Virus record (IMG/VR): IMGVR_UViG_3300028895_000276
Coordinates: 1-60,657 of that record
Reading direction: 5' to 3' (one strand)
From: a virus
Lineage: Duplodnaviria > Caudoviricetes
Length of the DNA: 60,657 nt
This document shows positions 3,033 through 48,458 of this stretch, piece after piece. The notes under the pieces were generated by a model. That model was given only the letters and a program-made list of their open reading frames with translations, had not been told where the DNA came from and made no database searches. The first letter of the stretch is position 1. Each line of letters opens with the position of its first letter. The position numbers and the translations under genes are program-made.

Positions 3033-5719
3033 GCCGCTATCGCTCCTTTAGCTTCCATAGCGCTGAATTCTAAAGCCAGCCCACCAGGACGTAGCATACT
3101 CTGCGCCACTAGTGTGTACTGCGGACTGTAAGTCGTGTTGTTCTCGATCACGCTGCTACCCTGTCCGGGCATCGTGTACTGCCCACCGGTGTTAGAACCA
3201 GCCATCCCCGGTAGTACCATCTGTGGCTGTATCACCATCCTGTCCATATCCTTGGCGAAGTCAGCCCACGCTGTGTGGATAGGCAACGGTGACCCCGGTG
3301 TTGCCCAGTCTGGTAAGTCAGGTATCTTGATCTTGAAGCTAAACACCTTACCAGTGATCCAATTCCAGAAACCCTTGACCGCTGCGACTAGCTGATCCCA
3401 GTTCTCCTTCACTGGTGCGATGGCCGTTTCGATGCTGGTCATGGCCGATTCCCATATCAGACGGAACGCCTCGACCGCGTTCTGTAGCCGGACCTCTAGC
3501 CAGTCCTTGATTACCGCCCATATCGGCTCGATGATCTTCCAGGCTGCCTGGAAATCAGCCTTCATCTTGTTCCAGTCATCTTTCCACTTATTCATCAAGA
3601 GATCGATCCACGGCATCAAGTTATCGTTGATCCAACGTCCGATCTCTGCCCATAGGGTCTCGATGAAGTACCACGCGTTGCTAGTAGCTAGCTCGATGTC
3701 TGCCCAGATCTCTGTCCACTTGTTCCACAGATCCTCGACCGTAGGTATGAGCTTGCCTGTCACCCACTCGCTTAGGGTAGTCCAGATGTTCTCGATGGTA
3801 GCCCACGCATTCTCTAGTGCTGATTGAATAGCAGGCCATGCGGTATTTACCCAAAAGTCCTTGAGCGTAGCGAGTGCTGCGGGCACGTTCTCCTGCAGCC
3901 ACGTCCATACCTGTTCCAGTACTGGACGCGCTGTGCCGTCCCAAAACGCCGTGAGTGCCGAAGCTATACCGAGGAAATCCTCTTCCCATAGCTTACGTAG
4001 ACTGGCTACCACTGCGATAGCTAGGCCGATAGCCGCTACCACCGCCGCGATGGGCGCTAGGAACGACACCACAGCCGGCACTACCACGCCCAGTATGACA
4101 CCAGCTAGGACCACCAACACATCCTGTAGCGCGATGTTGTCTACCACCCACGCTCGTACGGTCTCGATGAGCGGCAGCACGTTCTCCTGCAGCCAGATCA
4201 CCGCTTCGACTATCGCGTACATGATGTCTGCTAGCCACTCCGGGAAGATGTCCTCCCACGGGTAGTCGATGCCGAACACGCCAGCTTGCATATCCTGGAA
4301 CAGCAATATCAGGCCGCCGATGATCTCTAGCACCGGCTGTGCGAACTCTGGCACGTGCGTTAGCCAGTCGTTCAGCAGATCACCGTCCTCTGATACCGCT
4401 AGCAGGTACTTAAGCACGCCACTTAAGCCCTCGCCTATGCTCTCGAAGATAGCTATCAGGGTAGGTCCGTGCGTCTCGACCATGCTAGCAACCCAGCCTA
4501 GCAGATCCGTCAGTACTGGCATCAGCGCCGTACCTATCTGGATCTTGATGGTCTCGACAGTGCCCTCGAATGCCTCCATCCGTCCTGCTAGCGTATCAGC
4601 CTTACGCGCCGCCTGCTCCTGTGTGGTGGCCGCTTCGGAGATCGCTTCCTCCATATCGCGCCACCCATCAGCACCAGCCTGTAGCAGCTTACCCATGCCG
4701 CGTTGACCTTGCTTCGTGAAGATGGTTGCCAACGCCGCGTCGCGCTCTGCAGCGCCCAGGTCGACGAACGCATCTTCGAACTCCTCCACGATGTTAACCA
4801 TGGGTTTCATCTGGCCGGTGACTGTGTCGCGTACCTCGATGCCGAGGTCAGCTAGCGCCTCCGCGCCGGCGTCTGTAGGTGCCTTCAGGCTGTCCAGTGC
4901 GTTTGCCACTGCTGTACCAGCGAAGGATCCTTCCATGCCCTGCATACTAAGGACTGCCAGCGCCGTGTTCATCTCTTCGATGGGGCGGTTGGCGCTCGAG
5001 AAAGACGTACTAGCCATCTGCCACGCGGCTGCCATCCCGGTAACGTCCGTCTTGGACGCATCCGCAGCCATCACCATGTTGTTGAGTGCGTCGTTCATGA
5101 ACTGCGCCTTGTCGGCGTCAGTATCTAGCTCACTCCCGAACGACGACAGCGCCACGGTAGCCAGACCGGATGCCGCAGCCATATCCAGCTCTGTGGCTGC
5201 TGCCATGTCGATAGAAGCACGCAGCGCACCGCCTAACTCAGCCGTGCCAGCTAGGTAGCCCTGCAGATCACCGAATACGAGGTTAGTGCTCAGACCAGAC
5301 TTATATAGCTCGATCAGCGATTCGGAAGCACCGGTGGCAGACACGCCTAGCAAGTCCGTGTCGCCACCCACCATGATAGCCGCATCGCGTAATGTGTCGA
5401 ACGACAAGCCGGTAGCGCTGGCCGCTATCTCCAGATCCGCCATCGAGGAGTCAAAGTCGATTGCCATGCCGACGCCCTCTTCGACGAAGTCGCCCATGGC
5501 CCTACCGGCACCGCGCACGGCGTTGACCGCCGAGTTAGCCGCGTTTACTAGAGTGTTACCTAGAGCAGTACCTAGTGTCGTGGACACGGTGCGCGACAAG
5601 AGGCTGCCGGTCTTGTCCAGACCCATCATCAGCTTGTCAGCACCACCCAGCGCCGACTTGAACTGTCCCCAGCCCTGAACTAGGAACTCGGTAACGAACT
5701 GCTCAGTCACTCCGGGCAT
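3029..5719 (-). CDS. Tail tape measure protein (TP901-like)
   Basis: 896 aa, Ala-rich helical, FDSSM..L and GS.AGTA motifs, Trp-periodic C-terminal repeats, central hydrophobic segments. Confidence 0.93.
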   Translation of the reverse strand: MPGVTEQFVTEFLVQGWGQFKSALGGADKLMMGLDKTGSLLSRTVSTTLGTALGNTLVNAANSAVNAVRGAGRAMGDFVEEGVGMAIDFDSSMADLEIAASATGLSFDTLRDAAIMVGGDTDLLGVSATGASESLIELYKSGLSTNLVFGDLQGYLAGTAELGGALRASIDMAAATELDMAAASGLATVALSSFGSELDTDADKAQFMNDALNNMVMAADASKTDVTGMAAAWQMASTSFSSANRPIEEMNTALAVLSMQGMEGSFAGTAVANALDSLKAPTDAGAEALADLGIEVRDTVTGQMKPMVNIVEEFEDAFVDLGAAERDAALATIFTKQGQRGMGKLLQAGADGWRDMEEAISEAATTQEQAARKADTLAGRMEAFEGTVETIKIQIGTALMPVLTDLLGWVASMVETHGPTLIAIFESIGEGLSGVLKYLLAVSEDGDLLNDWLTHVPEFAQPVLEIIGGLILLFQDMQAGVFGIDYPWEDIFPEWLADIMYAIVEAVIWLQENVLPLIETVRAWVVDNIALQDVLVVLAGVILGVVVPAVVSFLAPIAAVVAAIGLAIAVVASLRKLWEEDFLGIASALTAFWDGTARPVLEQVWTWLQENVPAALATLKDFWVNTAWPAIQSALENAWATIENIWTTLSEWVTGKLIPTVEDLWNKWTEIWADIELATSNAWYFIETLWAEIGRWINDNLMPWIDLLMNKWKDDWNKMKADFQAAWKIIEPIWAVIKDWLEVRLQNAVEAFRLIWESAMTSIETAIAPVKENWDQLVAAVKGFWNWITGKVFSFKIKIPDLPDWATPGSPLPIHTAWADFAKDMDRMVIQPQMVLPGMAGSNTGGQYTMPGQGSSVIENNTTYSPQYTLVAQSMLRPGGLALEFSAMEAKGAIAA

Positions 5720-5747
5720 ATCTCACCTGCCGATCTAGTCGGCGTGT

Positions 5748-6176
5748 CTAGTCCTCGTCTGCTGTGCTGGACATCGACATGATCGCCTTGCACAACTCCC
5801 ACGCTTCAGCTTCGTCTTCGACCACCTCGTGCAGCACCCACGCAGCCCGGACCGATCGCTGGTTCTCACTGCTCAGTCCCATTTCGACCAGCATCTCTGC
5901 CATCTCTTTAGGTGGGTCTGTTACGATGCCGTAGCCGAAGCAGTAGTTCATGATACCCATGACGGATCTGGTCTGTGACGACCTCAGACCGTTCTTGACG
6001 ATAGCAGCACGCACCTCGTCCTGCGAGTTGGCGTCTGCCAGATCCTTGTTGCCGGCGCTGAGCTTGATCATCAGCGATGTGAGCGGCAACGTGTTGACCT
6101 TCCTGCATACGATGGTCACGCCGCGTGCGGTGGTCACCTCTAGCGTGCCCGGTGCCTCTCCTGCCTTGGTTTGCAT
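5748..6176 (-). CDS. Probable tail assembly chaperone
   Basis: Position just upstream of the tape measure gene; ATG at 6176 after AAGGAGG. Confidence 0.55.
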   Translation of the reverse strand: MQTKAGEAPGTLEVTTARGVTIVCRKVNTLPLTSLMIKLSAGNKDLADANSQDEVRAAIVKNGLRSSQTRSVMGIMNYCFGYGIVTDPPKEMAEMLVEMGLSSENQRSVRAAWVLHEVVEDEAEAWELCKAIMSMSSTADED

Positions 6177-6210
6177 CCTACTGCCTCCTTGGTGATGGTG
6201 GTCCTCGCTT

Positions 6211-6316
6211 CCGATGCCGTCCCGCTGCAACGGGAGATACTCTCCTTGCTCTTCGTGGTATCCTAAGCTATGTCAGGCCCTGTGTGAGCCGTCCCGTGCA
6301 AGGAAAATACCTTCCG
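6211..6316 (-). repeat. Dispersed intergenic hairpin element, copy A
   Basis: Minus-strand arms CGGAAGGTATTTTCCTTGC and GCAAGGAGAGTATCTCCCG; homologous to copies at 14859, 32279, 37942, 49554. Confidence 0.85.
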
Positions 6317-13010: not shown

Positions 13011-14840
13011 CTAGCCTCTAGCCTTGACAACAGCCTGCACATCGCGCTTGATGATCTTGCCATCCCTGCCCGTACCCGTCACCTCTGCTAGGTCCACGCC
13101 ACTGACCTCTGCGAACGAGGCCGCAGCGGGTGACACGTTGTATTCGACAGGCTCAACGGGAGTCGGCGCCGGCGCAACGACCTTCTCTTTCTGCGGCTCC
13201 TCGCTCGGTGTCGGTTCGGGTGATTTAACCACACTCTCTTCTGGCTGCGGCTGGACTGCCGGCAACGCTGCCCTCTCGAATTCGACCATCCCTGTGAGCC
13301 ATTCGGCGTCCACCGGGTCAGCCCAAAACATCATGTTGCGCTGGTTGCGCCCATACTTGTAGCGTTGGCCAGTTGGACCGTTGATAGTCTGGTTGCCGAT
13401 GTTGGCGCCCAGGTACTTGACCAACACGCTGCCGTCATCTCTAGACGCAGCTAGCGCCGCTACTGCAGGACTGGACCTAGTCCCAGTCTTGCTAACCACC
13501 ACCCGAGGTGTCGTCTTTCGCCTACCACCACAACAAGCCATCGGTAACTCCCCTTTCGAGTAAACAGCACTGTGGATCCGCGCCACCTTGTGCAAGAAAT
13601 AGGACCGAGGACGAGGTACCCGTTGCGTGCGTCCTTGCCCCTCGCGCCTATAGCAATAGTGCGCCTCCCGCAGATGTACTCCACAGTACCCGTGCAACCC
13701 TAGGTTGATGTTGAACTCCCAGTCCTCTCGCCCGTTGTCCATCCTGTTAGAATAGCCACCGGTTTCCAACCATGCAATACGCGGAAACATGATACCCTTA
13801 TGCATACAGTTACGGTCTAACAGTTCATCAAACACGTACTCTGGCATGACCTTACGCTGTCGTGCTCCGTTCCTGCCGTGGTAGACGATGTCGTCGTAGA
13901 CCACGCTGTGTGGGTTTGCTAGCTGCAACTCGTACATGCGCTCTAGCCGCCGAGGTGCCATCCAGTCATCGCCATCCAGGACCGTGCAGAACCTGCCCTT
14001 GGCTATGCTCAGGCCGGCGTTAGCCGCCGAACTCGCGCCACCGTTGCGCTGCCGTACGTAGTGAATCGCCTTCCACGGGTCGTGTAGTCTCTGCCCGACT
14101 ATGGGCGTATTGTCCATGCTGCCGTCGTCCACTATAATGATCTCGGTAGCCTGGAACGTCTGGTCTAGCACCGAAGTCACAGCCTGCTCTAGATAGCGCC
14201 CATAGTTGTAGCACGTTATGATCACGCTGATCTCTGGTGGCGTCTTGATCAACCACCGTCTAGCTGCCCTGTCGCCACCAACATCCTCTATAGCCTGTCT
14301 GATACTGGTGCCGTAGGTCTTCGGTCTCTTATGCTTGAAGTAGCCACGCACGTCCAGCGGCTGCACCCGGAACCCGCTGCGGCACGCCCGCAGTTGATAC
14401 TCGCACGTGGCACCCCATAGTGGATAGAGGTCTCCGTTGAAGCCGCCTATAGCGTTCAGCAGGTCACGACGCACGAACATGAACGTTCCCTGTACATAGC
14501 CGTTAGGCCAGCCAGGGTGTTTCATAACGCCGTCACCGATGATCGCATAGCTCTGTCTCTCTGCTAGCGCACGCTGCCATCCGTTCAGCAACTCGCCGTC
14601 CTGGTTCAGCACCAGCACGTCCGTGTCACACTCAGCGAACCCACGGTTGCAGCCGCCCGAGAAGTAGCCGCGCTCATGCTGCTTGATCACGCGCACGTTA
14701 GGCCATCTGGATACGTCTGGTGGCGCACTGCCGTAATCGTTGATGACCAGGGTGGGGATATCCGCCGGCACGGTGTCCAGAAGAGCCGGCAACGTTGCGT
14801 GACCGTGCCAGAACGGGATGACTACAGTTAGGTTGTCCAA
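13011..14840 (-). CDS. Tandem GT2 glycosyltransferase with a C-terminal E3-binding-like domain
   Basis: Two GT-A units (VVIP/INDYGS/LNQD and SVIITCYN/IVDDGSMD/LDGDD/EDWE); C-terminal SPAA..FAE..GVDL.EV.GTGRDGKI.K.DV; start chosen at TTG after GGAGGG (track start 14888 lies in a hairpin repeat). Confidence 0.88.
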   Translation of the reverse strand: MDNLTVVIPFWHGHATLPALLDTVPADIPTLVINDYGSAPPDVSRWPNVRVIKQHERGYFSGGCNRGFAECDTDVLVLNQDGELLNGWQRALAERQSYAIIGDGVMKHPGWPNGYVQGTFMFVRRDLLNAIGGFNGDLYPLWGATCEYQLRACRSGFRVQPLDVRGYFKHKRPKTYGTSIRQAIEDVGGDRAARRWLIKTPPEISVIITCYNYGRYLEQAVTSVLDQTFQATEIIIVDDGSMDNTPIVGQRLHDPWKAIHYVRQRNGGASSAANAGLSIAKGRFCTVLDGDDWMAPRRLERMYELQLANPHSVVYDDIVYHGRNGARQRKVMPEYVFDELLDRNCMHKGIMFPRIAWLETGGYSNRMDNGREDWEFNINLGLHGYCGVHLREAHYCYRREGQGRTQRVPRPRSYFLHKVARIHSAVYSKGELPMACCGGRRKTTPRVVVSKTGTRSSPAVAALAASRDDGSVLVKYLGANIGNQTINGPTGQRYKYGRNQRNMMFWADPVDAEWLTGMVEFERAALPAVQPQPEESVVKSPEPTPSEEPQKEKVVAPAPTPVEPVEYNVSPAAASFAEVSGVDLAEVTGTGRDGKIIKRDVQAVVKARG

Positions 14841-14858
14841 CAAACCCTCCGCTTTAAC

Positions 14859-14943
14859 CGAAGGTACTTTCCTTGCACGTGACGGCATTCAGTGCTATGC
14901 TGGCCGCTATGTGTGCCGTCCTGTGCAAGGAAAATGCCTCCCG
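14859..14943. repeat. Dispersed intergenic hairpin element, copy B
   Basis: cgaaggtactttccttgcacgtgacggca ... tgccgtcctgtgcaaggaaaatgcctcccg long imperfect inverted repeat. Confidence 0.8.
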
Positions 14944-18216: not shown

Positions 18217-18438
18217 TCAACGCTCCGCGTCTTCTATCGCCAACTTAAACTCATCCCACGGAATGTAGTAGTCTGGATCACCTCGTCTGCGCACCTGCCG
18301 GCAGTTCAACGGCAGTCTGATGTGTACCATAGGACCGGATGCTGTACCTATCACTCGAAACAGCACGGTGCCCCTGTCATCGCCAACGCGGACGAATCCG
18401 TCGTCGTCCCTGACTACTTGATCGAGACTTCGTGCCAT
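18217..18438 (-). CDS. Hypothetical protein
   Basis: 73 aa ORF overlapping the end of the upstream sulfotransferase. Confidence 0.55.
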   Translation of the reverse strand: MARSLDQVVRDDDGFVRVGDDRGTVLFRVIGTASGPMVHIRLPLNCRQVRRRGDPDYYIPWDEFKLAIEDAER

Positions 18439-19253
18439 CGTCTGTAGTCCTGCCAGCAGCCGTGTATAATCATCGTCTCCTGCTCTTTGTTCAAGTCCTC
18501 GCAGTACCGATCGATATGTGCTTGCTCCGTATCCACGATAGACGCCATCTGTACCCGCTCTTCATGCGTGCGCTGCTCTAGCCCTAGAGCCTCGTACAGC
18601 TTGAATATCTGAGCGTCAGGTTCGCCAACTAACCGCTCTAACTCCATGACCGCGTAGTTGTCCTCGTCAACCAGCAGCCTCTGGTCCCACGCCTGCTTCA
18701 TCCGCTCGTGATACCACCACGGGAAGTCGCCATACCTGATCGGTCCCCACTTGCGCGGTACCACCGATGCTGCCACGTCACGCGGGTCACGGATAACGTG
18801 CACGAACTTGGCGTCGGGTAGGGACATCTGCAGGAACGATGCCCAACCCACACACGCCGGCTCCTTGATGACGATGTCCGTCTTGCCTACGTGTGGACAG
18901 ATCATGCCGAATGCCCGCCGCATGAAGAACCGCGCATACTCGTACCTAGTACGGGTGCTGGTAGCTGCCATGTAGTCTAGGTGGCGCCAGGTCTCCGGTG
19001 TGTAGATCTGGTCTGCCCGATCCCACACGCCGAACCGCTTCAGGTTGTTTAGCATCGTGCAGTTGTAGCGTTCCAGCAGATTAGCTATAAACTCCTCTCT
19101 GTCGATGTCGTTCCTGTACGCGTAGTCTGCCAGTCCCCCAGGACCAAACAGCCACTTAGGTTCATAGAACACCGCGAACCTGCCGTCACGTTGCAGGATC
19201 TGCCCCAGCAGCGTCGTGCCACTGCGTCCAGTGCCTCCCACGAAGATAATCAC
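18414..19253 (-). CDS. Sulfotransferase family protein
   Basis: PAPS loop FVGGTGRSGTTLL and 3'-phosphate motif HVIRDPRDVAAS; GTG start after GGAGG. Confidence 0.88.
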   Translation of the reverse strand: MIIFVGGTGRSGTTLLGQILQRDGRFAVFYEPKWLFGPGGLADYAYRNDIDREEFIANLLERYNCTMLNNLKRFGVWDRADQIYTPETWRHLDYMAATSTRTRYEYARFFMRRAFGMICPHVGKTDIVIKEPACVGWASFLQMSLPDAKFVHVIRDPRDVAASVVPRKWGPIRYGDFPWWYHERMKQAWDQRLLVDEDNYAVMELERLVGEPDAQIFKLYEALGLEQRTHEERVQMASIVDTEQAHIDRYCEDLNKEQETMIIHGCWQDYRRWHEVSIK

Positions 19254-19909
19254 TCTCGCCTCCGTACTCGACCCATCATACTCATGCACCTGTCTCGTCT
19301 GCCAATCCAGTCAGCCAGCATAACCACCGCAGAGTAGGTGTCGCCCTGCGTCAGCTCTCTGTAGTGCAACGGCAGATGTGGTCGCTGTTGCAGCTTCAGA
19401 AAGTCGTGGATGCTCTGGTAGTAGTCGGCGTATAGCCTAGCCCACTGCACCTCGCTGTGGCGCCTGTTGTTTCTCCTGATCAGGCTCTCGATGACGCTGG
19501 TCTCGTCCCTGTACGTGATCACATAGCGCGGTATGCAGTGTTCCTCTCTCAGGATCCTGTCCCACGCGAAGCACGTCAGACTGGTCCTAGGATCCTTGAA
19601 GCCCCACTCGTCGTGTACGCTCCTCTCTCGGATAGCCTGCACCATTATATCGTGCAGCAACTCCGTAGCATCAGATAGCGCCGCTATAGACGGTACTTTA
19701 GCCCAGCTACCACCGGCAGTCTTTAGCAGTGCTCTGTTGACGGTGGACATGCCGGTGTCTTCGAAATACCCGTACGGTTGATGGGTATCGCGCCGGCTGC
19801 GGTCCTCCTCGCTGCACATCGGCAACCCAGCGGCATCCAGCATTGAAGCTGCCAGCGAAGTGCCCGTTCTATGCATCCCCAGCACCACATAGACGACCGG
19901 ACGTTTCAT
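19250..19909 (-). CDS. Sulfotransferase family protein
   Basis: VLGMHRTGTS, PYGYFED, WGFKDPRT motifs. Confidence 0.88.
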   Translation of the reverse strand: MKRPVVYVVLGMHRTGTSLAASMLDAAGLPMCSEEDRSRRDTHQPYGYFEDTGMSTVNRALLKTAGGSWAKVPSIAALSDATELLHDIMVQAIRERSVHDEWGFKDPRTSLTCFAWDRILREEHCIPRYVITYRDETSVIESLIRRNNRRHSEVQWARLYADYYQSIHDFLKLQQRPHLPLHYRELTQGDTYSAVVMLADWIGRRDRCMSMMGRVRRRE

Positions 19910-20556
19910 ACGTCGCTCCTCCCACGGTAGTCCAGATAGCACTGACAATTAGTCAGACACACGGTCTCGCCGCTGCCAGGGATAGCCGGTCTACCGCTGC
20001 TAGGCGATATAAACTCTTCGTCGATGCTCTTCCAACCCTCGCCGCTGAGGTCCTCACAGTCTGGGCAGTTCTCCGCAGCAGCGTTCATCACCCATCGATG
20101 CTCGGAATATCCACGCGACTGGCTCGCAGCCAGCAGCCCACGCTCATATGCCTCGCGGCTCGAGTTGGCATACATACGTGCTCTCGCACGGATCTGGCCC
20201 TCTGTAAGATCACCGGCTGCTACCTCGCCGTAGAAGCCGTCTAGATAGCGGTACTGGTCTGCTATGCTGCCGCCGATGCTGCCCCAGTCAGATTGCGTCA
20301 TCTGGTCGGTGCCACCACGCCCCACCAGGTATTGAGCGATGTACTGGTCCTTGATCTCCGTGCGCATCGCTGCGTGCCAGTCATCCGGACTGATGCTGTT
20401 GGTAGAGACCATATCCGCTAGGACGCCCATAACGTCACCGCCGGCAGAGATCGCCGTGTCGATCTCCGTCCGCACCTCAGCGTATGTAACTAGCCTGCCG
20501 GTCTCGATGTTGCGGTACCCGGTCCCTCTGAGCCTTGGATCGTATGTAAACGGCAT
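19906..20556 (-). CDS. Head morphogenesis (MuF-like) minor capsid protein
   Basis: After the portal; C-terminal W...CPDC...PG...C..NCQC.L pattern. Confidence 0.7.
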   Translation of the reverse strand: MPFTYDPRLRGTGYRNIETGRLVTYAEVRTEIDTAISAGGDVMGVLADMVSTNSISPDDWHAAMRTEIKDQYIAQYLVGRGGTDQMTQSDWGSIGGSIADQYRYLDGFYGEVAAGDLTEGQIRARARMYANSSREAYERGLLAASQSRGYSEHRWVMNAAAENCPDCEDLSGEGWKSIDEEFISPSSGRPAIPGSGETVCLTNCQCYLDYRGRSDV

Positions 20557-41988: not shown

Positions 41989-42013
41989 AGTGCACAAGCA
42001 AGGAGGGACGACC

Positions 42014-43825
42014 ATGAGCTACTACGCCTTAAGCTTCGAACCCGGTGACGTAGAAGAGCCTCTGACAGCAGAGGACATCGCCGCGATAGCTGCATCAGAT
42101 ATGGTGGCTATCGACACGGAGACCACCGGGCTGGACTACGACAGCAGGATCCTTGGTATTAGCGTAGCGTGGCGCGTGCCCGGTGCTATGCACAGTGCCT
42201 ACCTGAACCTTAGTCACCCGCTGAGCCTGTTTTCAGCACGCATCGACGACGACATCGTCGCGGACGTGATGAGAGCGGTCTTTGAACCGGACCGACCGGT
42301 GGCTCTGCTAAACGCCGTCTTCGACATAGAGAAGCTGTCACGCTGGGGTCACCTGGAGCTGCCTATCGAATACCCGTACCTCTACGACGCACAGATCCTG
42401 GCGCGTTGGCTGATGTCCTTCGAGAAGTTCCAAGGCGTCAGCATGGAGAAGCTAGTTAGCCGGCGCCTAGGCGGCATGCCGCCGTGGATGAGCAGCATGA
42501 AGAAGATGAGGTCCAAGCTAGGGACGCTACCAGCGGAGAAGGTCAGCCCGTACGCCCGCGCCGACGCCGAGTTCACCTTGATGCTGGTCGAGGATCTGAT
42601 GCGCGAGGGTAGACTGCTCTACGACGACGAAGTCCTAGACACGATGCTGGAACGCGAGAGCCGGTTTTTGTGGTTACTCACCCGGATCCAGCGACACGGT
42701 ATCCTGCTGGACCTCGAAGAGATCCACGAGCGGTCCGTACGAATGACCGCAGACATGCAAGAGCTGCGAGCGTTCCTGAAGCAGAACGGCATTCACAACC
42801 CGGACAGCCGCGATAGCGTTCTCAAGGGTCTACCTATGCACATCGTGGCAGGACTACCGCAGACCGACAACGGCAACTACAAGATCGACAGTGCTGCCCT
42901 AGCCGGAAAAGGACCGGTGGCCGAGGCAGTATTGCGCTATCGCAGTTTAGGCAAGGCCGTTGGTACGTGGCTGGACGGTTTCCGCAGCAAGGTAGCCAGC
43001 GATGGCCGGCTGCATCCGCGATTCCGCGCTGCCGGCACGGTCTCTGGCCGGCTGTCCTGCAACGAGCCGAATTTGCAGGCTGTCCCACTAGCGGACCGTG
43101 GCGCCGCGTTCGGTAGCCTGATGGGTATATTCAAGGCAGCACCTGGATTCTCGCTGTTGGCTGCAGACTACGAGCAAGCCGAGCTTCGGACGTGCGCCGC
43201 GTATGCTAAGTCTACCGCTATGGCCAACGCATTCAAGAACGGAGAGGATATTCACTCGTTTGCTGCTAGTCTGATGTGGCCGGACTCGGAGATCAACTAC
43301 GAGCTACGGCAGCTAGGCAAACGTTGCAACTACTGCACCACCTACGGTGGCGGGTACCGTGCGCTGGCCGAGAACACTGGCATACCTGAGAGCGAAGCCA
43401 AGATCGTCATCAACACGTACCGTCGTGCCTTCCCTGAACTGGTAGCAGCACAGAATCGCGCCGGTGACGTATGGGAGCAGCGAGGGTACATCACGATGTG
43501 GAATGGCCGCCGGCACTACAAGTCACCTAACGACGGCAGCTACAAAGCCTTCAACCAGGTCATGCAGGGTGACGTAGCTGAGCTGGTCAAGGACGCTATG
43601 CTGAGTGTGGACGCCCGGTTCGCAGAGATGGGTGTTGGCAACATCGTGCTACAGATCCACGACAGCATCGAAGTCGAGGTACAGACCGACGCCGTCGAGG
43701 ACGTGAAAGCGATGATGCGTAAGGAGATGGTAGCCGCCGCACCGCTGCACATCATGAACCGCACTGAGCCGCCTATCACCATGGACGTTGGGTTCGAGAA
43801 CTGGTACCCCGAGGAGGACGAATGA
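42014..43825 (+). CDS. polA: Family A DNA polymerase with 3'-5' exonuclease (candidate DpoZ)
   Basis: Exo I DTETTG, Exo II NAVFD, Exo III YARAD; SGRLS..PNLQ; motif A DYEQAELR; motif B KRCNYCTTYG; motif C IHDS. Confidence 0.95.
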   Translation: MSYYALSFEPGDVEEPLTAEDIAAIAASDMVAIDTETTGLDYDSRILGISVAWRVPGAMHSAYLNLSHPLSLFSARIDDDIVADVMRAVFEPDRPVALLNAVFDIEKLSRWGHLELPIEYPYLYDAQILARWLMSFEKFQGVSMEKLVSRRLGGMPPWMSSMKKMRSKLGTLPAEKVSPYARADAEFTLMLVEDLMREGRLLYDDEVLDTMLERESRFLWLLTRIQRHGILLDLEEIHERSVRMTADMQELRAFLKQNGIHNPDSRDSVLKGLPMHIVAGLPQTDNGNYKIDSAALAGKGPVAEAVLRYRSLGKAVGTWLDGFRSKVASDGRLHPRFRAAGTVSGRLSCNEPNLQAVPLADRGAAFGSLMGIFKAAPGFSLLAADYEQAELRTCAAYAKSTAMANAFKNGEDIHSFAASLMWPDSEINYELRQLGKRCNYCTTYGGGYRALAENTGIPESEAKIVINTYRRAFPELVAAQNRAGDVWEQRGYITMWNGRRHYKSPNDGSYKAFNQVMQGDVAELVKDAMLSVDARFAEMGVGNIVLQIHDSIEVEVQTDAVEDVKAMMRKEMVAAAPLHIMNRTEPPITMDVGFENWYPEEDE

Positions 43826-44448
43826 CCGAAGAGAAAGAGCCGTATCTGGACCACCCCAGCGCCACAGAGCAAGACGCTACCTGGAGGAACACATCCAGCG
43901 TGGATTGGCTGTCGCCACCCGAGGTGCTAGCAGCCGCCCGCAACGTCATGGGCAAGTTCGATCTCGATCCAGCCAGCAGCGAGAAGGCTAACCAGTTCGT
44001 GCGCGCCGAGGTATTCTTCGGACAGGACAACGGCACGGACGGTCTGCAGATGCCCTGGCGTGGCAGGGTCTGGTTGAATCCACCATACGGTAAGTACAAA
44101 CCGGGTGTCAGCCGTGCCGGCATGTGGGGCAAGAAGCTACTCGAGGAGTACATCGCAGGCAAGGTAATAGAAGCGTGCCTGTACGTCAAGACCGCCGTTG
44201 GCTATAAGTGGTTCGACAAACTACTGCAGCAGGCCGATGCCGTCTGTTTCCTGTGGGGTCTGCCCGAGCACCTGAACCTCGTAGACAACCGCTACGGGAA
44301 GTGCAAGATGGGCAGAGCAGTGATGTACTACGGGTCGCACCCTGCACAGTTCGTGCAGTGCTTTAGGCACCTAGGCTATTTCCGGTTCGACGCCGCCGAC
44401 CGCACGGATTACCACGTCCTACGCGCTGTTGGTATGGCCAAATTCTAA
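43822..44448 (+). CDS. Phage DNA N6-adenine (amino) methyltransferase
   Basis: W.SPP, FDLDPAS, DGL..PW.GRVWLNPPYG motifs of the phage Dam-like family. Confidence 0.9.
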   Translation: MTEEKEPYLDHPSATEQDATWRNTSSVDWLSPPEVLAAARNVMGKFDLDPASSEKANQFVRAEVFFGQDNGTDGLQMPWRGRVWLNPPYGKYKPGVSRAGMWGKKLLEEYIAGKVIEACLYVKTAVGYKWFDKLLQQADAVCFLWGLPEHLNLVDNRYGKCKMGRAVMYYGSHPAQFVQCFRHLGYFRFDAADRTDYHVLRAVGMAKF

Positions 44449-44876: not shown

Positions 44877-45974
44877 ATGTTACAGCAGGTATGGAGTATC
44901 GTTGGCGGTCAGGCCGGCAGCGAAGGCAAAGGCAAGGCAGCCGGGTATCTGGCAGCCGCTCTCAAGCCCGAGGTGGTAGCGTGCGCGTTCACCGCCAACG
45001 CTGGCCACACAGCGTATGACCGGGACGGCAACAAGATCGTCGTGCACACCATCCCGATTGGCGCGTTCTTCGGCGCAAAGCTGGTCGTCATCGGACCGGG
45101 TGCTGCCATCCGCACGTGGCGCCTGATCGAGGAGATGGAAGCGTTGCACCGCGTGAACCCGGACTGCAAGGTGCTGCTAGACGAGAACGTGGTACTCATC
45201 TCACCGGAGCAGGTAGCGTGGGAAGCCGAGACGATGAAGAAGATCTCGTCCACGTGCCAAGGCGTGGGACGCGCACAGGCCGACAGGCTACTGCGGCAGG
45301 GTCGCGCAGACACCGCTAGCAACCACGCACCCACCTTCATCGAAGGTCTCACAGTAGGCAGCGCCGCCGAGGTGTTGCAGGTGCGCTACGATTCCGGTGA
45401 CAAGATCCAGATCGAAGGTTGTCAAGGTATCGACATCGACCTACTACACGGGATCCAGTACCCGTACTGCACCAGCCGCAGCATCACCGCCGCAGCCGTG
45501 GCTAACGACTGTGGATTCCCTGCAACCCGCGTGGACAGCGTGGTCTCGGTGTTCCGCACCTACCCTATCCGCGTGGGCAACGTGGTTGAGGAAGGCAAGC
45601 AGGTTGGATGGAGCGGACCTATCCCACGGGACAGCGACGAGTTGACGTGGGACGAGATGACCAAGCTGGCCGGCAGCCCCGAGAGACTAGAGGAGCGAAC
45701 CACCGTCACCAAGAAGGTACGCCGCATCTTCACGTGGAGCCGGCAGCGCTACATCGTCTCGCAGTGGCTGAACAACGCCACGCACGCGTGGGTTAACTTC
45801 GGTGACTACCTCGACTGGAACATCCACGGCGTGTGCGGCAACACCACAGAGCTGCATAGCATCAGCAAGACCGCTGCGCAGTGGGTTGACACCGAGATCG
45901 GCATGTCACACCTGCTGGCACTCGGTACCGGTCCTGGCATGGATGACGTGATCGCGCATCCTAGACTGAGGTAG
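44877..45974 (+). CDS. purZ: N6-succino-2-amino-dAMP synthetase (PurZ/PurZ0 type, PurA paralogue)
   Basis: GGQAGSEGKGK (Ser for the PurA Asp of GDEGKGK), NAGHT, EGCQG, YPYCTSR, RTYPIRVG, ERTTVTKKVRR, LGTGP; 365 aa. Confidence 0.88.
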   Translation: MLQQVWSIVGGQAGSEGKGKAAGYLAAALKPEVVACAFTANAGHTAYDRDGNKIVVHTIPIGAFFGAKLVVIGPGAAIRTWRLIEEMEALHRVNPDCKVLLDENVVLISPEQVAWEAETMKKISSTCQGVGRAQADRLLRQGRADTASNHAPTFIEGLTVGSAAEVLQVRYDSGDKIQIEGCQGIDIDLLHGIQYPYCTSRSITAAAVANDCGFPATRVDSVVSVFRTYPIRVGNVVEEGKQVGWSGPIPRDSDELTWDEMTKLAGSPERLEERTTVTKKVRRIFTWSRQRYIVSQWLNNATHAWVNFGDYLDWNIHGVCGNTTELHSISKTAAQWVDTEIGMSHLLALGTGPGMDDVIAHPRLR

Positions 45975-45976
45975 CG

Positions 45977-47116
45977 ATGATCGAGCGCTACAACAACGCA
46001 GACATCGCTGGTATCTGGAGCACCACGAGCCAGTACCAGCGATGGCTGGACATCGAGAGGACTTGGATACGCTGCTTACTGGACATCGATCCACCGATGG
46101 TACCAGGAGAGGTGGTTATTCACGACATCCGCGTCAATACGTACGAGATCGAGCACTTCGAGACCGTGACACACCACGATGTGCGAGCATTCCTGATGTG
46201 GCTAGAGCGTGAGCTGCCGTCGCCGCTACGCAGATACCTACACCTAGGACTAACAAGCTCTGATGTCGTAGACACCGGCACAGCCCTAGCAGTGCGCGGT
46301 AGCGTGCGCGTGTTGGATGATATCTACAGCCGGCTGATACACTACCTGTACAAGAGTGCAGCCAGCGCGCCGCCGCTGCTACCATCCTACTCACACGGGC
46401 AGCCGGCACGCAGCATCTCGAGCGCCCACTTCTACCGGCGTCTAGAGATACCCATAGGTAGAGCGTTCTCAGAGGTGAGCGTATCGCAGCTGCCCATAGC
46501 CATCGGTGGTCCTACTGGCGAATGGTCAAGCTTACCACCAGGAGCCACGTCCACGCTGCTGCAAGCACGCTCATCTTTCAACGTCATCATGTCCACCCGC
46601 TACGGCGTAAAGAACGTAGCGCCGAGATCGCAGGCTCTGGACCGCTCTTACTACACGAAGCTAGCACAGGCACTCAGCAGGATGTCCAACGCACTGTCAC
46701 AGGCTGCCCTGCACCTGAGGTTCTACCACCTACGCGGTATGCTGCGGATAGGCGGTACAGCCTCATCATCAGCGATGCCGAACAAGAGCAACCCAGTACG
46801 CCTAGAGAAGGTGTGCGGCATGGCACGCGTAGCGCGAGGGTACGCTCTGATGGCCGGCTGCAACCAGGACACGTGGGAGCTACGCGACATCAGCAACTCG
46901 TCAGTAGAAAGGGTCTGGATGCCGGATCTGTTCCACACGGTGGCACACCAGGTTAGCACGCTCTGCAACGTGATCGCCAAGATGCAGTGGGTCGAGCCGG
47001 CAATCGACGCTGAGCTAGCAGCCTTCCCCAATGACCCATTCGGAAAGATGGTGGCGTTGCAAGCCACCGGGATGCACTACAACAAAGCATGGCGCACAGC
47101 CAAGGAGGACACATGA
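45977..47116 (+). CDS. purB: Adenylosuccinate lyase homologue
   Basis: HHDV, HLGLTSSDVVDT, SHGQPA, SSAMPNKSNP..E, RDISNSSVER; 379 aa, short C-terminus. Confidence 0.92.
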   Translation: MIERYNNADIAGIWSTTSQYQRWLDIERTWIRCLLDIDPPMVPGEVVIHDIRVNTYEIEHFETVTHHDVRAFLMWLERELPSPLRRYLHLGLTSSDVVDTGTALAVRGSVRVLDDIYSRLIHYLYKSAASAPPLLPSYSHGQPARSISSAHFYRRLEIPIGRAFSEVSVSQLPIAIGGPTGEWSSLPPGATSTLLQARSSFNVIMSTRYGVKNVAPRSQALDRSYYTKLAQALSRMSNALSQAALHLRFYHLRGMLRIGGTASSSAMPNKSNPVRLEKVCGMARVARGYALMAGCNQDTWELRDISNSSVERVWMPDLFHTVAHQVSTLCNVIAKMQWVEPAIDAELAAFPNDPFGKMVALQATGMHYNKAWRTAKEDT

Positions 47117-47601
47117 GCACTGACTACAGCCGGCTGGGAGTGGTACCTATTGCCGACGTCACACAGGACCACGTGCAAGGATACGCCCGCGAGATGACAC
47201 CCAGCGCCGGCATCGTTCCGCTACACGACATCGAGCGCGTCATCGCGAGTATGTTTCTCAAGGTCAGGGACGGCGCTATGGACCGGATGCCCGGTACCCT
47301 GTCATTGTACGATGACGCGATGGCTATAGCGCCTCGCGTGCCCGGTATCGCGGACAAGCAACACGCTTTGGCCGAGGTACGCGCACGCATCAAAGAGCGA
47401 GGCGAGCAGTACGGGTGTGCCGTCCTCAACCTGATGGGTACCTGGTACACTAGCTCAAACGTGGCTGCCAAGCTACTGCGCGTGTGGGATCACTGGACAC
47501 AGCACAAGATCCTACTGACCGACGAAGTGCTAGACATCGCTGGGTACTGCATCTTGAACATGGCGATACTCACCCACAGCATGGCCGAGGTCGGACAATG
47601 A
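47113..47601 (+). CDS. All-alpha nucleotide pyrophosphohydrolase-like protein (candidate MazZ analogue)
   Basis: KERGEQYG ... KLLR ... DEVLDIAGY pattern of nucleotide-modification-associated MazG-like domains; operonic with purZ. Confidence 0.6.
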   Translation: MSTDYSRLGVVPIADVTQDHVQGYAREMTPSAGIVPLHDIERVIASMFLKVRDGAMDRMPGTLSLYDDAMAIAPRVPGIADKQHALAEVRARIKERGEQYGCAVLNLMGTWYTSSNVAAKLLRVWDHWTQHKILLTDEVLDIAGYCILNMAILTHSMAEVGQ

Positions 47602-48458
47602 ACAGCATCTACCTAGCCGGTCCTCTGGACTACGCCAACCTAGGCGACAAGGCAGCGTGGCGCGAACGGTTCGCAGCTCTGCTGGGTCAGCACTCTCCCA
47701 TGTCCGCACAGCTACCGCTGCTCTACGATCCTAGCAAGCCTTTCACCAACCCGCTGTCCAGCCCGGACACGCTGGTTTCCGTGAACATGGCCGCACTGGA
47801 AGCAAGCTCTATCGTGATAGCACTGGTTATCTCGACCGAGCCGTCGTGGGGCACACCCATCGAGATATGGGAAGCACGCCGGCAAGGCAAGCCCGTGCTG
47901 TTGTGGGTACCGAACGAGGACTGCCCGCCCTACCTCATCGCAGACACTGAACGGTATCTGACGCTGAACGCCATCGCCGCTAGGACCGCTGAGATGTTGT
48001 ACCAGGACGCAGATACCGACCTCGTCACCACGTCTCAAGACCTACTGTACGAGAACGGTGGTATCCAGTTCCCCAAGATCTCTGGTGATGTAGGGTATGA
48101 CGTCGAGGTGATGTCACAGACCAGGCTACTGCCGCACGCCATCACCAAGGTGCCATTGGGATTCAACGGTGAGCCACTACGCGTGAAGACACCGCGTGGT
48201 ACGTGGTTCTCGATGTTCCCACGCAGCAGCATGGTCGACAAGGGTCTAATGGTCGTGAAGACCGTCTGCGACGAAGGGTACACCGGTGATCTGTTCATGT
48301 TCGTGTACAACACCACCAACAAGCTGCTGATGCTGCTACCCGGACAGAGGATCGGGCAGATCGTGCTGTTCGATAGCGTCACGCCGCAGATGCGCCACGT
48401 GTCTACACTACCGCGCACCGCACGTGGCAGTAACGGTTTCGGCAGCACAGGGACGTGA
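47598..48458 (+). CDS. Fusion of a nucleoside 2-deoxyribosyltransferase-like domain and a trimeric dUTPase-like domain
   Basis: N-terminal IYLAGP and SWGTPIE..EA...GKPV; C-terminal GDVGYD, PRSS, CDEGYTG, GQRIGQ, RGSNGFGSTG. Confidence 0.88.
   Translation: MNSIYLAGPLDYANLGDKAAWRERFAALLGQHSPMSAQLPLLYDPSKPFTNPLSSPDTLVSVNMAALEASSIVIALVISTEPSWGTPIEIWEARRQGKPVLLWVPNEDCPPYLIADTERYLTLNAIAARTAEMLYQDADTDLVTTSQDLLYENGGIQFPKISGDVGYDVEVMSQTRLLPHAITKVPLGFNGEPLRVKTPRGTWFSMFPRSSMVDKGLMVVKTVCDEGYTGDLFMFVYNTTNKLLMLLPGQRIGQIVLFDSVTPQMRHVSTLPRTARGSNGFGSTGT

Follow-up and report, generated by a model that had tools for sequence, protein, structure and literature searches.

A putative DmtZ-DutZ fusion in an uncultured phage with a predicted 2-aminoadenine genome

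How would a phage that carries a purZ-type gene but no DatZ keep adenine out of its DNA? The question is raised by IMG/VR record IMGVR_UViG_3300028895_000276 (Caudoviricetes), a 60,657-nt sequence from an uncultured phage that is rated a complete virus genome of 60.7 kb with direct terminal repeats, and that is referred to here, over its whole length, as the window. A first-pass annotation, made from the sequence alone, had singled out one open reading frame (ORF), 47598-48458, and proposed that its product is a two-step dATP sink or, alternatively, an enzyme exchanging bases in favour of 2-aminoadenine (Z). Homology and gene context support this proposal, and the activity it describes is the one published for Arthrobacter phage Wayne and Gordonia phage Ghobes (Poubanne et al., Nucleic Acids Research 2026, PMC12884076). 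Because of homology, conserved catalytic residues and gene context, we consider it likely that the ORF encodes a working DmtZ-DutZ, which would take dATP to dAMP and on to adenine, and which would also feed dGMP to PurZ, clear dUTP and be able to make dZMP from free Z.

As described by Poubanne et al. (PMC12884076), the Dut-like protein of Wayne has an N-terminal NDT-like domain, while Ghobes has two separate genes. DutZ hydrolyses dATP, dGTP and dUTP to the monophosphates, the whole Wayne DmtZ-DutZ converts dATP to adenine, and the separated domains assign both steps. Both DmtZ enzymes, from Wayne and from Ghobes, also pass the deoxyribose 5-phosphate of dAMP on to Z (about 20% in vitro), which the authors propose as a second route to dZTP. 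In their NCBI set of 98 PurZ0 genomes, dutZ is found in all 98 and dmtZ in 85, with the two fused in 77. NDT and dUTPase/NDT dual proteins have independently been linked to Wayne-like Z genomes in a 2025 preprint (10.1101/2025.10.22.683976), and among the matches listed in our literature search DmtZ or PurZ0 appear only in PMC12884076. As the activity measured for Wayne and Ghobes matches what the first-pass annotation had deduced, the mechanism has been published before, together with kinetic data and mutants, and the window opens no new question in this respect. Judged by its sequence, the window fusion is a divergent new relative of the published DmtZ-DutZ, from an uncultured phage; fusion, PurZ and the family A DNA polymerase (PolA) are each less than about 35% identical to any cultured phage. 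The published adenine exclusion by DmtZ-DutZ would thereby extend to an uncultured lineage distant from the phages of Arthrobacter, Gordonia, Microbacterium and Streptomyces that the enzyme was described from. Such divergent members may help to define the residues that separate purine from uracil use in the dUTPase fold and hydrolase from transferase in the NDT fold, and they would be added parts for engineering Z-DNA synthesis.

Domain make-up and catalytic residues of the fusion

Pfam assigns residues 4-108 of the fusion to Nuc_deoxyrib_tr (PF05014, E 8.9e-9, 36 bits with a cut-off of 28.8) and residues 159-285 to dUTPase (PF00692, E 1e-18, 67.8 bits with a cut-off of 22), and PHROGs places the protein in phrog_135, dUTPase. 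A six-frame search of the genome returned one dUTPase match and one NDT match, both inside the fusion ORF, and no other dUTPase. Pfam and the six-frame search therefore agree with the earlier description of an NDT/DNPH1-like domain joined to a dUTPase fold, and the three strings it had quoted are found at residues 4-9 (IYLAGP), 83-89 (SWGTPIE) and 221-230 (KTVCDEGYTG). The AlphaFold2 model, based on 37 homologues, has a mean predicted local distance difference test score (pLDDT) of 87.7 and a predicted template modelling score (pTM) of 0.55; as modelled, the fusion is two well-folded domains joined by a loose or disordered linker. The start codon of the fusion, ATG at 47598, shares bases with the TGA that ends the upstream ORF (ATGA), and the TGA of the fusion (48456-48458) in turn overlaps a GTG of the following ORF. 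The ORF list also contains a longer alternative start, GTG at 47484; of the five closest relatives, three (P0003, P0004 and P0008) have their first residue where the ATG form has it, and the other two (P0006 and P0007) have 3-4 additional residues.

The N-terminal domain, residues 1-137, was compared by VIA-align with 48,161 representative chains and matched 7m5h (Z-score 15.7), the NDT 6evs (15.1) and 7o62 (14.4), followed by MilB 4ohr (12.8) and Rcl/DNPH1 2khz (11.1). When the window was aligned with Ghobes DmtZ (L002:6893-7375), the Wayne fusion (ALY10777.1, equal to L003:6441-7358) and Hiyaa gp69, the Ghobes residues Tyr6, Asp12, Pro57, Asn77, Gly99 and Glu103 were found to correspond to Tyr5, Asp11, Pro45, Asn63, Gly85 and Glu89 of the window, all six being identical. 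The catalytic triad of DmtZ (Tyr6/Asn77/Glu103 in Ghobes numbering) is thus intact as Tyr5, Asn63 and Glu89, and every DmtZ residue probed by mutagenesis is kept (Tyr5, Asp11, Pro45, Asn63 and Glu89). In Ghobes DmtZ the substitutions Y6A, E103A, D12A and D12R abolish dAMP hydrolysis, with D12A leaving residual activity on dGMP only, and N77D and P57A reduce it; Asp12 is the proposed acceptor of the adenine N6, and Pro57 is described as conserved in transferases (PMC12884076). In an alignment of 34 NDT-domain rows drawn from all loci, the Tyr, Asp, Gly and Glu equivalent to Ghobes Tyr6, Asp12, Gly99 and Glu103 are universal and Pro57 is present in 33 rows, the remaining one (L010) having Ala. 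Asn77 is found in 25 of the 28 PurZ-linked rows, and its position is occupied by Lys in all four NDTs from large contigs without PurZ nearby. The equivalents of Asp11 and Pro45 also occur in these four unlinked NDTs, so that the two residues do not discriminate on their own.

The C-terminal domain carries all five dUTPase motifs, namely I GDVGYDV (163-169), II PRSS (208-211), III KTVCDEGYTG (221-230), IV RIGQ (251-254) and V RGSNGFGSTG (276-285). A sequence search of the PDB with the fusion returned 49 dUTPase sequences (best 3c2t, E 4.1e-17), Foldseek matched the model to trimeric dUTPases of the PDB (1f7r, E 1e-12, TM-score by target 0.87), and VIA-align of residues ~146-285 gave dUTPases as well (1dun at best, Z-score 16.9). 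The five motifs are invariant or nearly so in the 37 homologues: Asp164, Gly166, Asp168, Arg209, Ser210, Asp225, Tyr228, Gly230, Gln254, Arg276 and Gly277 do not vary, and the GFGSTG of motif V is almost invariant.

Motif III is where the window departs from the usual pattern, with Thr222 in place of Gly and Cys224 in place of Ile. In the Dut alignment, the window and its seven subclade relatives have Thr or Ser for the first Gly, and Cys for the Ile occurs only in the window and P0003. The first-pass annotation had contrasted KTVCDEGYTG with GxIDxDYxG; Thr222 and Cys224 are indeed unusual, but the exchange of the second Asp for Gly is ordinary, and the remark is therefore only partly diagnostic. 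The Asp-to-Gly change was rejected as a marker of specificity, as it is also found in the dUTPases of Kharcho, Muntaha, IEBH, vipetofem and Pointis. The hairpin that follows motif III, which in the dUTPase fold probably reads the base, is GDLFMFVYN in the window, GELFSGVQN in Wayne, GELFAGAFN in Ghobes and of the GE(I/V)KV type in ordinary phage dUTPases. Two positions past the motif III Gly, Phe or Tyr stands in 26 of the 29 non-canonical rows, including the window, and Lys, Gly, His or Trp in all ten rows treated as canonical. Arthrobacter phage Kharcho (L047) is one of the phages treated as canonical here; its gp18, annotated as deoxyuridine triphosphatase at 5314-6300, is ~329 aa long, which suggests that this dUTPase has another N-terminal extension.

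Relatives, linkage to purZ and phylogenetic placement

Among cultured phages, megablast found no near-identical DNA. With tblastn, 279 of 50,697 phage records matched the fusion and 107 covered at least 80% of it, all at less than 60% identity; the best was Streptomyces phage Hiyaa (29.6%), many Arthrobacter phages were also matched, and the homologue records are annotated as deoxyuridine triphosphatase. A single-sequence scan of IMG/VR for close relatives of the fusion confirmed none, while a search of IMG/VR with a profile of the subclade retrieved 30 loci. A search of 5.8 billion proteins with the fusion gave 76 matches, of which 24 have both Pfam domains according to precomputed annotation. 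The nearest relatives (P0003, P0004 and P0006-P0008) have identities of 58%, 51%, 42%, 41% and 35% along almost the entire length. Shared traits of the group are Thr or Ser for the first motif III Gly, a short insertion before the central strand, and PPYL or PAYL at the Trp position. These sequence traits place the fusion in a small metagenomic subclade in which motif III and the base hairpin are altered.

A PurZ/PurA-like gene lies within ~2 kb of the NDT/Dut genes in 24 of the 30 subclade-profile loci, and in a 25th (L008, a complete 178-kb genome) it lies ~18 kb upstream. NDT and Dut were both matched in 19 loci, and the synthetase is adjacent in 17 of these; L021 is a 34%-complete fragment starting 128 bases before its NDT gene. 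Single-ORF NDT-Dut fusions are limited to L005 and L007 among the retrieved loci, the others having adjacent genes by our own ORF calls. DatZ homologues were found only in the five loci of PurZ-type phages, and in none of the NDT/Dut loci nor in the window.

We built a tree of the Dut domain in quick mode from 39 rows and 130 columns, including ten canonical rows. The window and its subclade fall into a 30-row group with all 19 PurZ-linked rows, supported by a Shimodaira-Hasegawa-like approximate likelihood ratio test (SH-aLRT) value of 93; the group has one intruder, the long-branched row of a Moorella phage. Holding the 29 non-canonical rows together gave a tree 2.7 log-likelihood units better than the free search. 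Membership of the window Dut domain in the PurZ-linked (DutZ) clade is, at the level of sequence, consistent with these trees but not proven.

In the PurZ tree (33 rows) the window falls on the PurZ0 side, with Wayne, Ghobes, Goodman and Hiyaa, and is split from the clade of VP5, Acinetobacter, Providencia and Klebsiella PurZ (SH-aLRT 96); the root is weak, as Flavobacterium phage MaF61, the outgroup, is long-branched and has Ser as well. The P-loop GSEGKG is found in 21 of the 33 rows, the window among them, all on the PurZ0 side, and GSTGKG in the five PurZ-type phages and in L005. Five loci (L006, L007, L009, L013 and L014) have a PurA-like gene with the canonical Asp (GDEGKG) beside NDT and/or Dut genes and PolA; in the tree these group together with good support (SH-aLRT 99), within the PurZ0 side.

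Gene neighbourhood and the missing DatZ

On the + strand, the genes leading up to and including the fusion are ordered primase-like, DnaB-like helicase, PolA, Dam-like methyltransferase, PurA homologue, PurB-like lyase, orphan ORF and fusion; the positions of the features discussed here are given in Table 1.

Table 1. Positions of the fusion, its parts and its upstream neighbours in the window
Feature	Position	Strand	Evidence
Predicted DmtZ-DutZ fusion ORF, 286 aa + stop	47598..48458	+	ORF list, Pfam, full-length alignment with Wayne and Hiyaa fusions
Predicted DmtZ (NDT-family) domain, residues 1-137	47598..48008	+	PF05014, AlphaFold2 model with VIA-align, residue match to Ghobes DmtZ
Inter-domain linker, residues 138-148	48009..48041	+	pLDDT <50 only at residues 138-145
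Predicted DutZ (trimeric dUTPase fold) domain, residues 149-286	48042..48455	+	PF00692, PDB sequence search, Foldseek, invariant columns
Motif III variant KTVCDEGYTG, residues 221-230	48258..48287	+	Alignments; Asp225 (catalytic position), Gly227, Tyr228 and Gly230 kept
Candidate DpoZ, a family A DNA polymerase that has a 3'-5' exonuclease domain	41990..43825	+	Pfam DNA_pol_A and DNA_pol_A_exo1
Predicted PurZ-type 2-aminoadenylosuccinate synthetase	44877..45974	+	Pfam Adenylsucc_synt; phrog_1211, E 4.9e-59; P-loop GQAGSEGKG, Ser15
PurB-like lyase (Lyase_1)	45977..47116	+	Pfam Lyase_1, E 1.3e-13; directly after PurZ
Orphan all-helical ORF, 170 aa (162 aa from 47113)	47089..47601	+	Between lyase and fusion; translationally coupled to fusion

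The PHROG matched by the synthetase is labelled '2-aminooxy adenylosuccinate synthetase', and Ser15 of the window PurZ is invariant with the PurZ of Wayne, Ghobes, Hiyaa and VP5. At this position PurA has an essential Asp (Asp13) and all phage PurZ have Ser (PMC12884076). The polymerase shares 47% identity with the PolA encoded at IMG/VR locus L007 and, among the matches listed for cultured phages, 26.5-27.5% at best. The lyase and gp76 of phage Hiyaa, which is annotated as PurB-like, are 29% identical; besides Hiyaa, genes for PurB-like lyases are also present in loci L012, L018 and L031. The preprint 10.1101/2025.10.22.683976 assigns the lyase step of Z synthesis to host PurB, the word PurB has 0 occurrences in the text of PMC12884076, and none of the papers listed by our literature search deals with a phage-encoded PurB in Z phages.

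That DatZ is missing, as the first-pass annotation had stated, holds for a genome rated complete. Six-frame searches of the whole genome with the Pfam families HD, YfbR-like, MazG, DUF550 (PF04447) and DUF5664 (PF18909) gave 0 matches, as did a six-frame search with DatZ of vibriophage VP5 as query, and none of these five families was found among the 71 Pfam-scanned ORFs of the window.

The orphan ORF between lyase and fusion is confidently modelled by AlphaFold2 as all-helical (pLDDT 91.4). A search of 1.84 billion representatives found only four relatives, and the motifs RG..YG, G..YT..AK.LR and D..LD.AGY are common to them. The ORF has no Pfam match even at E 10 and no PHROG, a PDB sequence search returned a chance match only (E 0.51), and the structural comparisons stayed at the level of helical-bundle noise (VIA-align best Z-score 5.9) or gave a best E of 0.31 (Foldseek). 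A hidden MazZ, DUF5664 or DatZ is unsupported, BLASTP and hhalign against the Wayne DUF5664 having given nothing; likewise, a lead to DUF1599 from the ESM Atlas was below threshold (0.89), and a six-frame search with PF07659 found nothing. The same slot, between purZ and dmtZ/dutZ, is filled by DUF5664 in phage Wayne and, in 16 loci, by a conserved, unannotated domain of ~100 aa which we call Ghobes-gp51-like, with the motifs PK..EYG, LGK..R and SDDT..D..Y. It occurs in Ghobes gp51 (L002:5971-6531), Goodman gp55 (L040:5223-5756), the C-terminus of Hiyaa gp68 (L004:6651-7907) and 13 IMG/VR loci. This domain matches no Pfam family, shows no detected similarity to DUF5664, and none to the genes that follow purZ in the phages of Acinetobacter, Providencia and Klebsiella. 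Compared with the orphan ORF by hhalign, it gave a motif match over 35 columns only (E 0.005, probability 7%).

Two further observations concern other genes of the window. A gene for a Dam-family N6-adenine methyltransferase lies between polymerase and PurZ (43822-44448, + strand), in a genome predicted to be adenine-free; phage Ghobes likewise has a DNA methyltransferase near its Z cluster. Among the structural genes, 13011-14888 and 18414-19948 (- strand) hold a gene for a family 2 glycosyltransferase that carries an E3-binding domain, and two genes of the sulfotransferase family, which is unusual cargo for a siphovirus-like genome.

Proposed mechanism, alternative readings and known systems

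In the mechanism that we propose, the C-terminal trimeric dUTPase-fold domain would, by homology, hydrolyse dATP to dAMP and pyrophosphate, and would probably also act on dGTP, providing dGMP for PurZ, and on dUTP. The N-terminal NDT-fold domain would cleave dAMP to adenine and deoxyribose 5-phosphate via a covalent Glu89 intermediate, and could transfer the deoxyribose 5-phosphate to free Z base to give dZMP. PurZ would join dGMP and Asp to form 2-aminodeoxyadenylosuccinate, and the phage PurB-like lyase and the family A polymerase would complete the set. Fusion, PurZ, lyase and polymerase together would amount to an irreversible removal of dATP and would fill the role that DatZ and MazZ have in other Z phages, and the phage would replace adenine by Z in its predicted Z-DNA genome. 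Because the Wayne fusion prefers dUTP over dATP, a dUTPase role is probably also present.

Several points weigh against this reading. The identity of the fusion to assayed enzymes is only 26-31%, the range given by the Wayne, Ghobes and Hiyaa proteins, and the Wayne fusion itself favours dUTP, with an apparent kcat of 16.4 versus 5.9 s-1 for dATP (PMC12884076). The lid residue Trp124 that Ghobes DmtZ receives from the second monomer is not kept, its place being taken by Pro110/Pro111 or Tyr112 depending on the alignment; as Trp stands there in only 7 of the 34 NDT rows, it is a trait of Ghobes-like members rather than one that defines the family. It is also likely that the subclade differs from the assayed enzymes at positions touching the base, through Thr222 and the hairpin GDLFMFVYN. 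In the Dut tree, with its 130 columns and ten canonical rows, moving the window subclade to the canonical dUTPases is not rejected by the approximately unbiased (AU) test (p-AU 0.44). In the PurZ tree the window forms a very long basal branch (2.57), and its placement on the PurZ0 side is weakly backed, since a tree in which it is forced to join the PurZ-type phages is worse by 11.5 log-likelihood units, with p-AU 0.06.

The result of the AU test for the Dut domain would fit an ordinary dUTP-specific dUTPase that acts against uracil, the NDT domain serving some other end, for example the removal of dUMP or of a different dNMP, with no special link to adenine exclusion. The five canonical motifs are intact, the protein is the sole dUTPase of the genome and its homologues are annotated as deoxyuridine triphosphatase. 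Yet the NDT/Dut and PurZ-like genes are tightly linked, with an adjacent PurZ-like gene in 24 of the 30 loci and one elsewhere in the genome in a further locus, and both Asp11 and Asn63, tied to dAMP use in DmtZ, are conserved. Moreover, the hairpin signature is common to the assayed DutZ proteins and not to the ten canonical rows, and the six-frame searches for HD, YfbR-like, MazG, DUF550, DUF5664 and VP5 DatZ left no other candidate for dATP removal in the genome. We thus hold a plain dUTPase to be very improbable. A main role in dZMP synthesis or Z salvage, with the NDT domain as a transferase from dAMP and the Dut domain supplying that dAMP, is improbable as well, even though both DmtZ enzymes were shown to carry out the dAMP-to-Z transfer (about 20% in vitro; PMC12884076) and Pro45, the counterpart of Ghobes Pro57, is kept. 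Hydrolysis dominates in vitro and free Z base is without a known source except the breakdown of phage DNA, according to the same article, while the phage has its own route through PurZ and PurB; besides, Z salvage and dATP destruction are not mutually exclusive.

With identity this low and a changed hairpin, there is scope for a shift in specificity, by which the subclade would be a purine-only dNTPase without dUTP activity or would prefer another dNMP, and the orphan ORF might supply the missing pool function. No residue known as catalytically needed differs, the altered positions have a presumed part in base choice and the orphan ORF has no detectable family; set against this are the subclade-specific changes in motif III and hairpin, the loss of the Trp lid, and an orphan helical ORF in the slot which holds the Ghobes-gp51-like domain in 16 other loci or DUF5664 in Wayne. 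On balance, such a shift seems rather unlikely. Going further, the window might represent a third, deep-branching lineage of Z-DNA phages, with a base pocket remodelled by Thr222, Cys224, an aromatic-rich hairpin and the loss of the Trp lid, with a PurB-like lyase of its own and with the helical orphan instead of the gp51-like or DUF5664 gene, possibly with a different specificity (for example that of a dedicated purine dNTPase) and with the orphan as a possibly undescribed nucleotide-pool enzyme; we consider this a doubtful, if conceivable, conjecture.

The reading as a DmtZ-DutZ for dATP removal is the one we prefer, and the Wayne protein is the system it resembles in domain order, flexible linker and catalytic residues, with the gene lying in both cases downstream of purZ of the Ser type, and with DatZ missing from either genome. 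The window differs from Wayne in having Thr222 and Cys224, a bulkier hairpin (FMFVYN) and no Trp lid, at 26-31% identity, and in the interval between purZ and fusion, which holds DUF5664 in Wayne and the PurB-like lyase and orphan ORF in the window. Ghobes has DmtZ (gp53) and DutZ (gp55) as separate genes where the window has one, with identities of 22% and 34%, respectively; six DmtZ residues are kept and the Dut domains align with all motifs, but Trp124 is not kept. DNPH1/Rcl, MilB and the NDTs share the fold and the same arrangement of Tyr and Glu nucleophile, whereas the window has Asn where most of them have Asp, has the Pro that PMC12884076 describes as typical of transferases, and is fused to a dUTPase domain. 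The canonical trimeric dUTPases have the fold and five motifs in common with the window; in contrast to them, motif II reads RSS (RSG in eight of the ten canonical rows), Phe follows motif III in the window and other PurZ-linked Dut domains, and the window domain is NDT-fused and PurZ-linked. Finally, DatZ together with MazZ/DUF550 of the PurZ-type phages has, in the published description, the same proposed task of dATP removal and dGMP supply; DatZ, which has no detectable homologue in the window, and DmtZ-DutZ would reach it with unrelated folds, the former by converting dATP to dA and triphosphate and the latter by converting dATP to dAMP and then to adenine.

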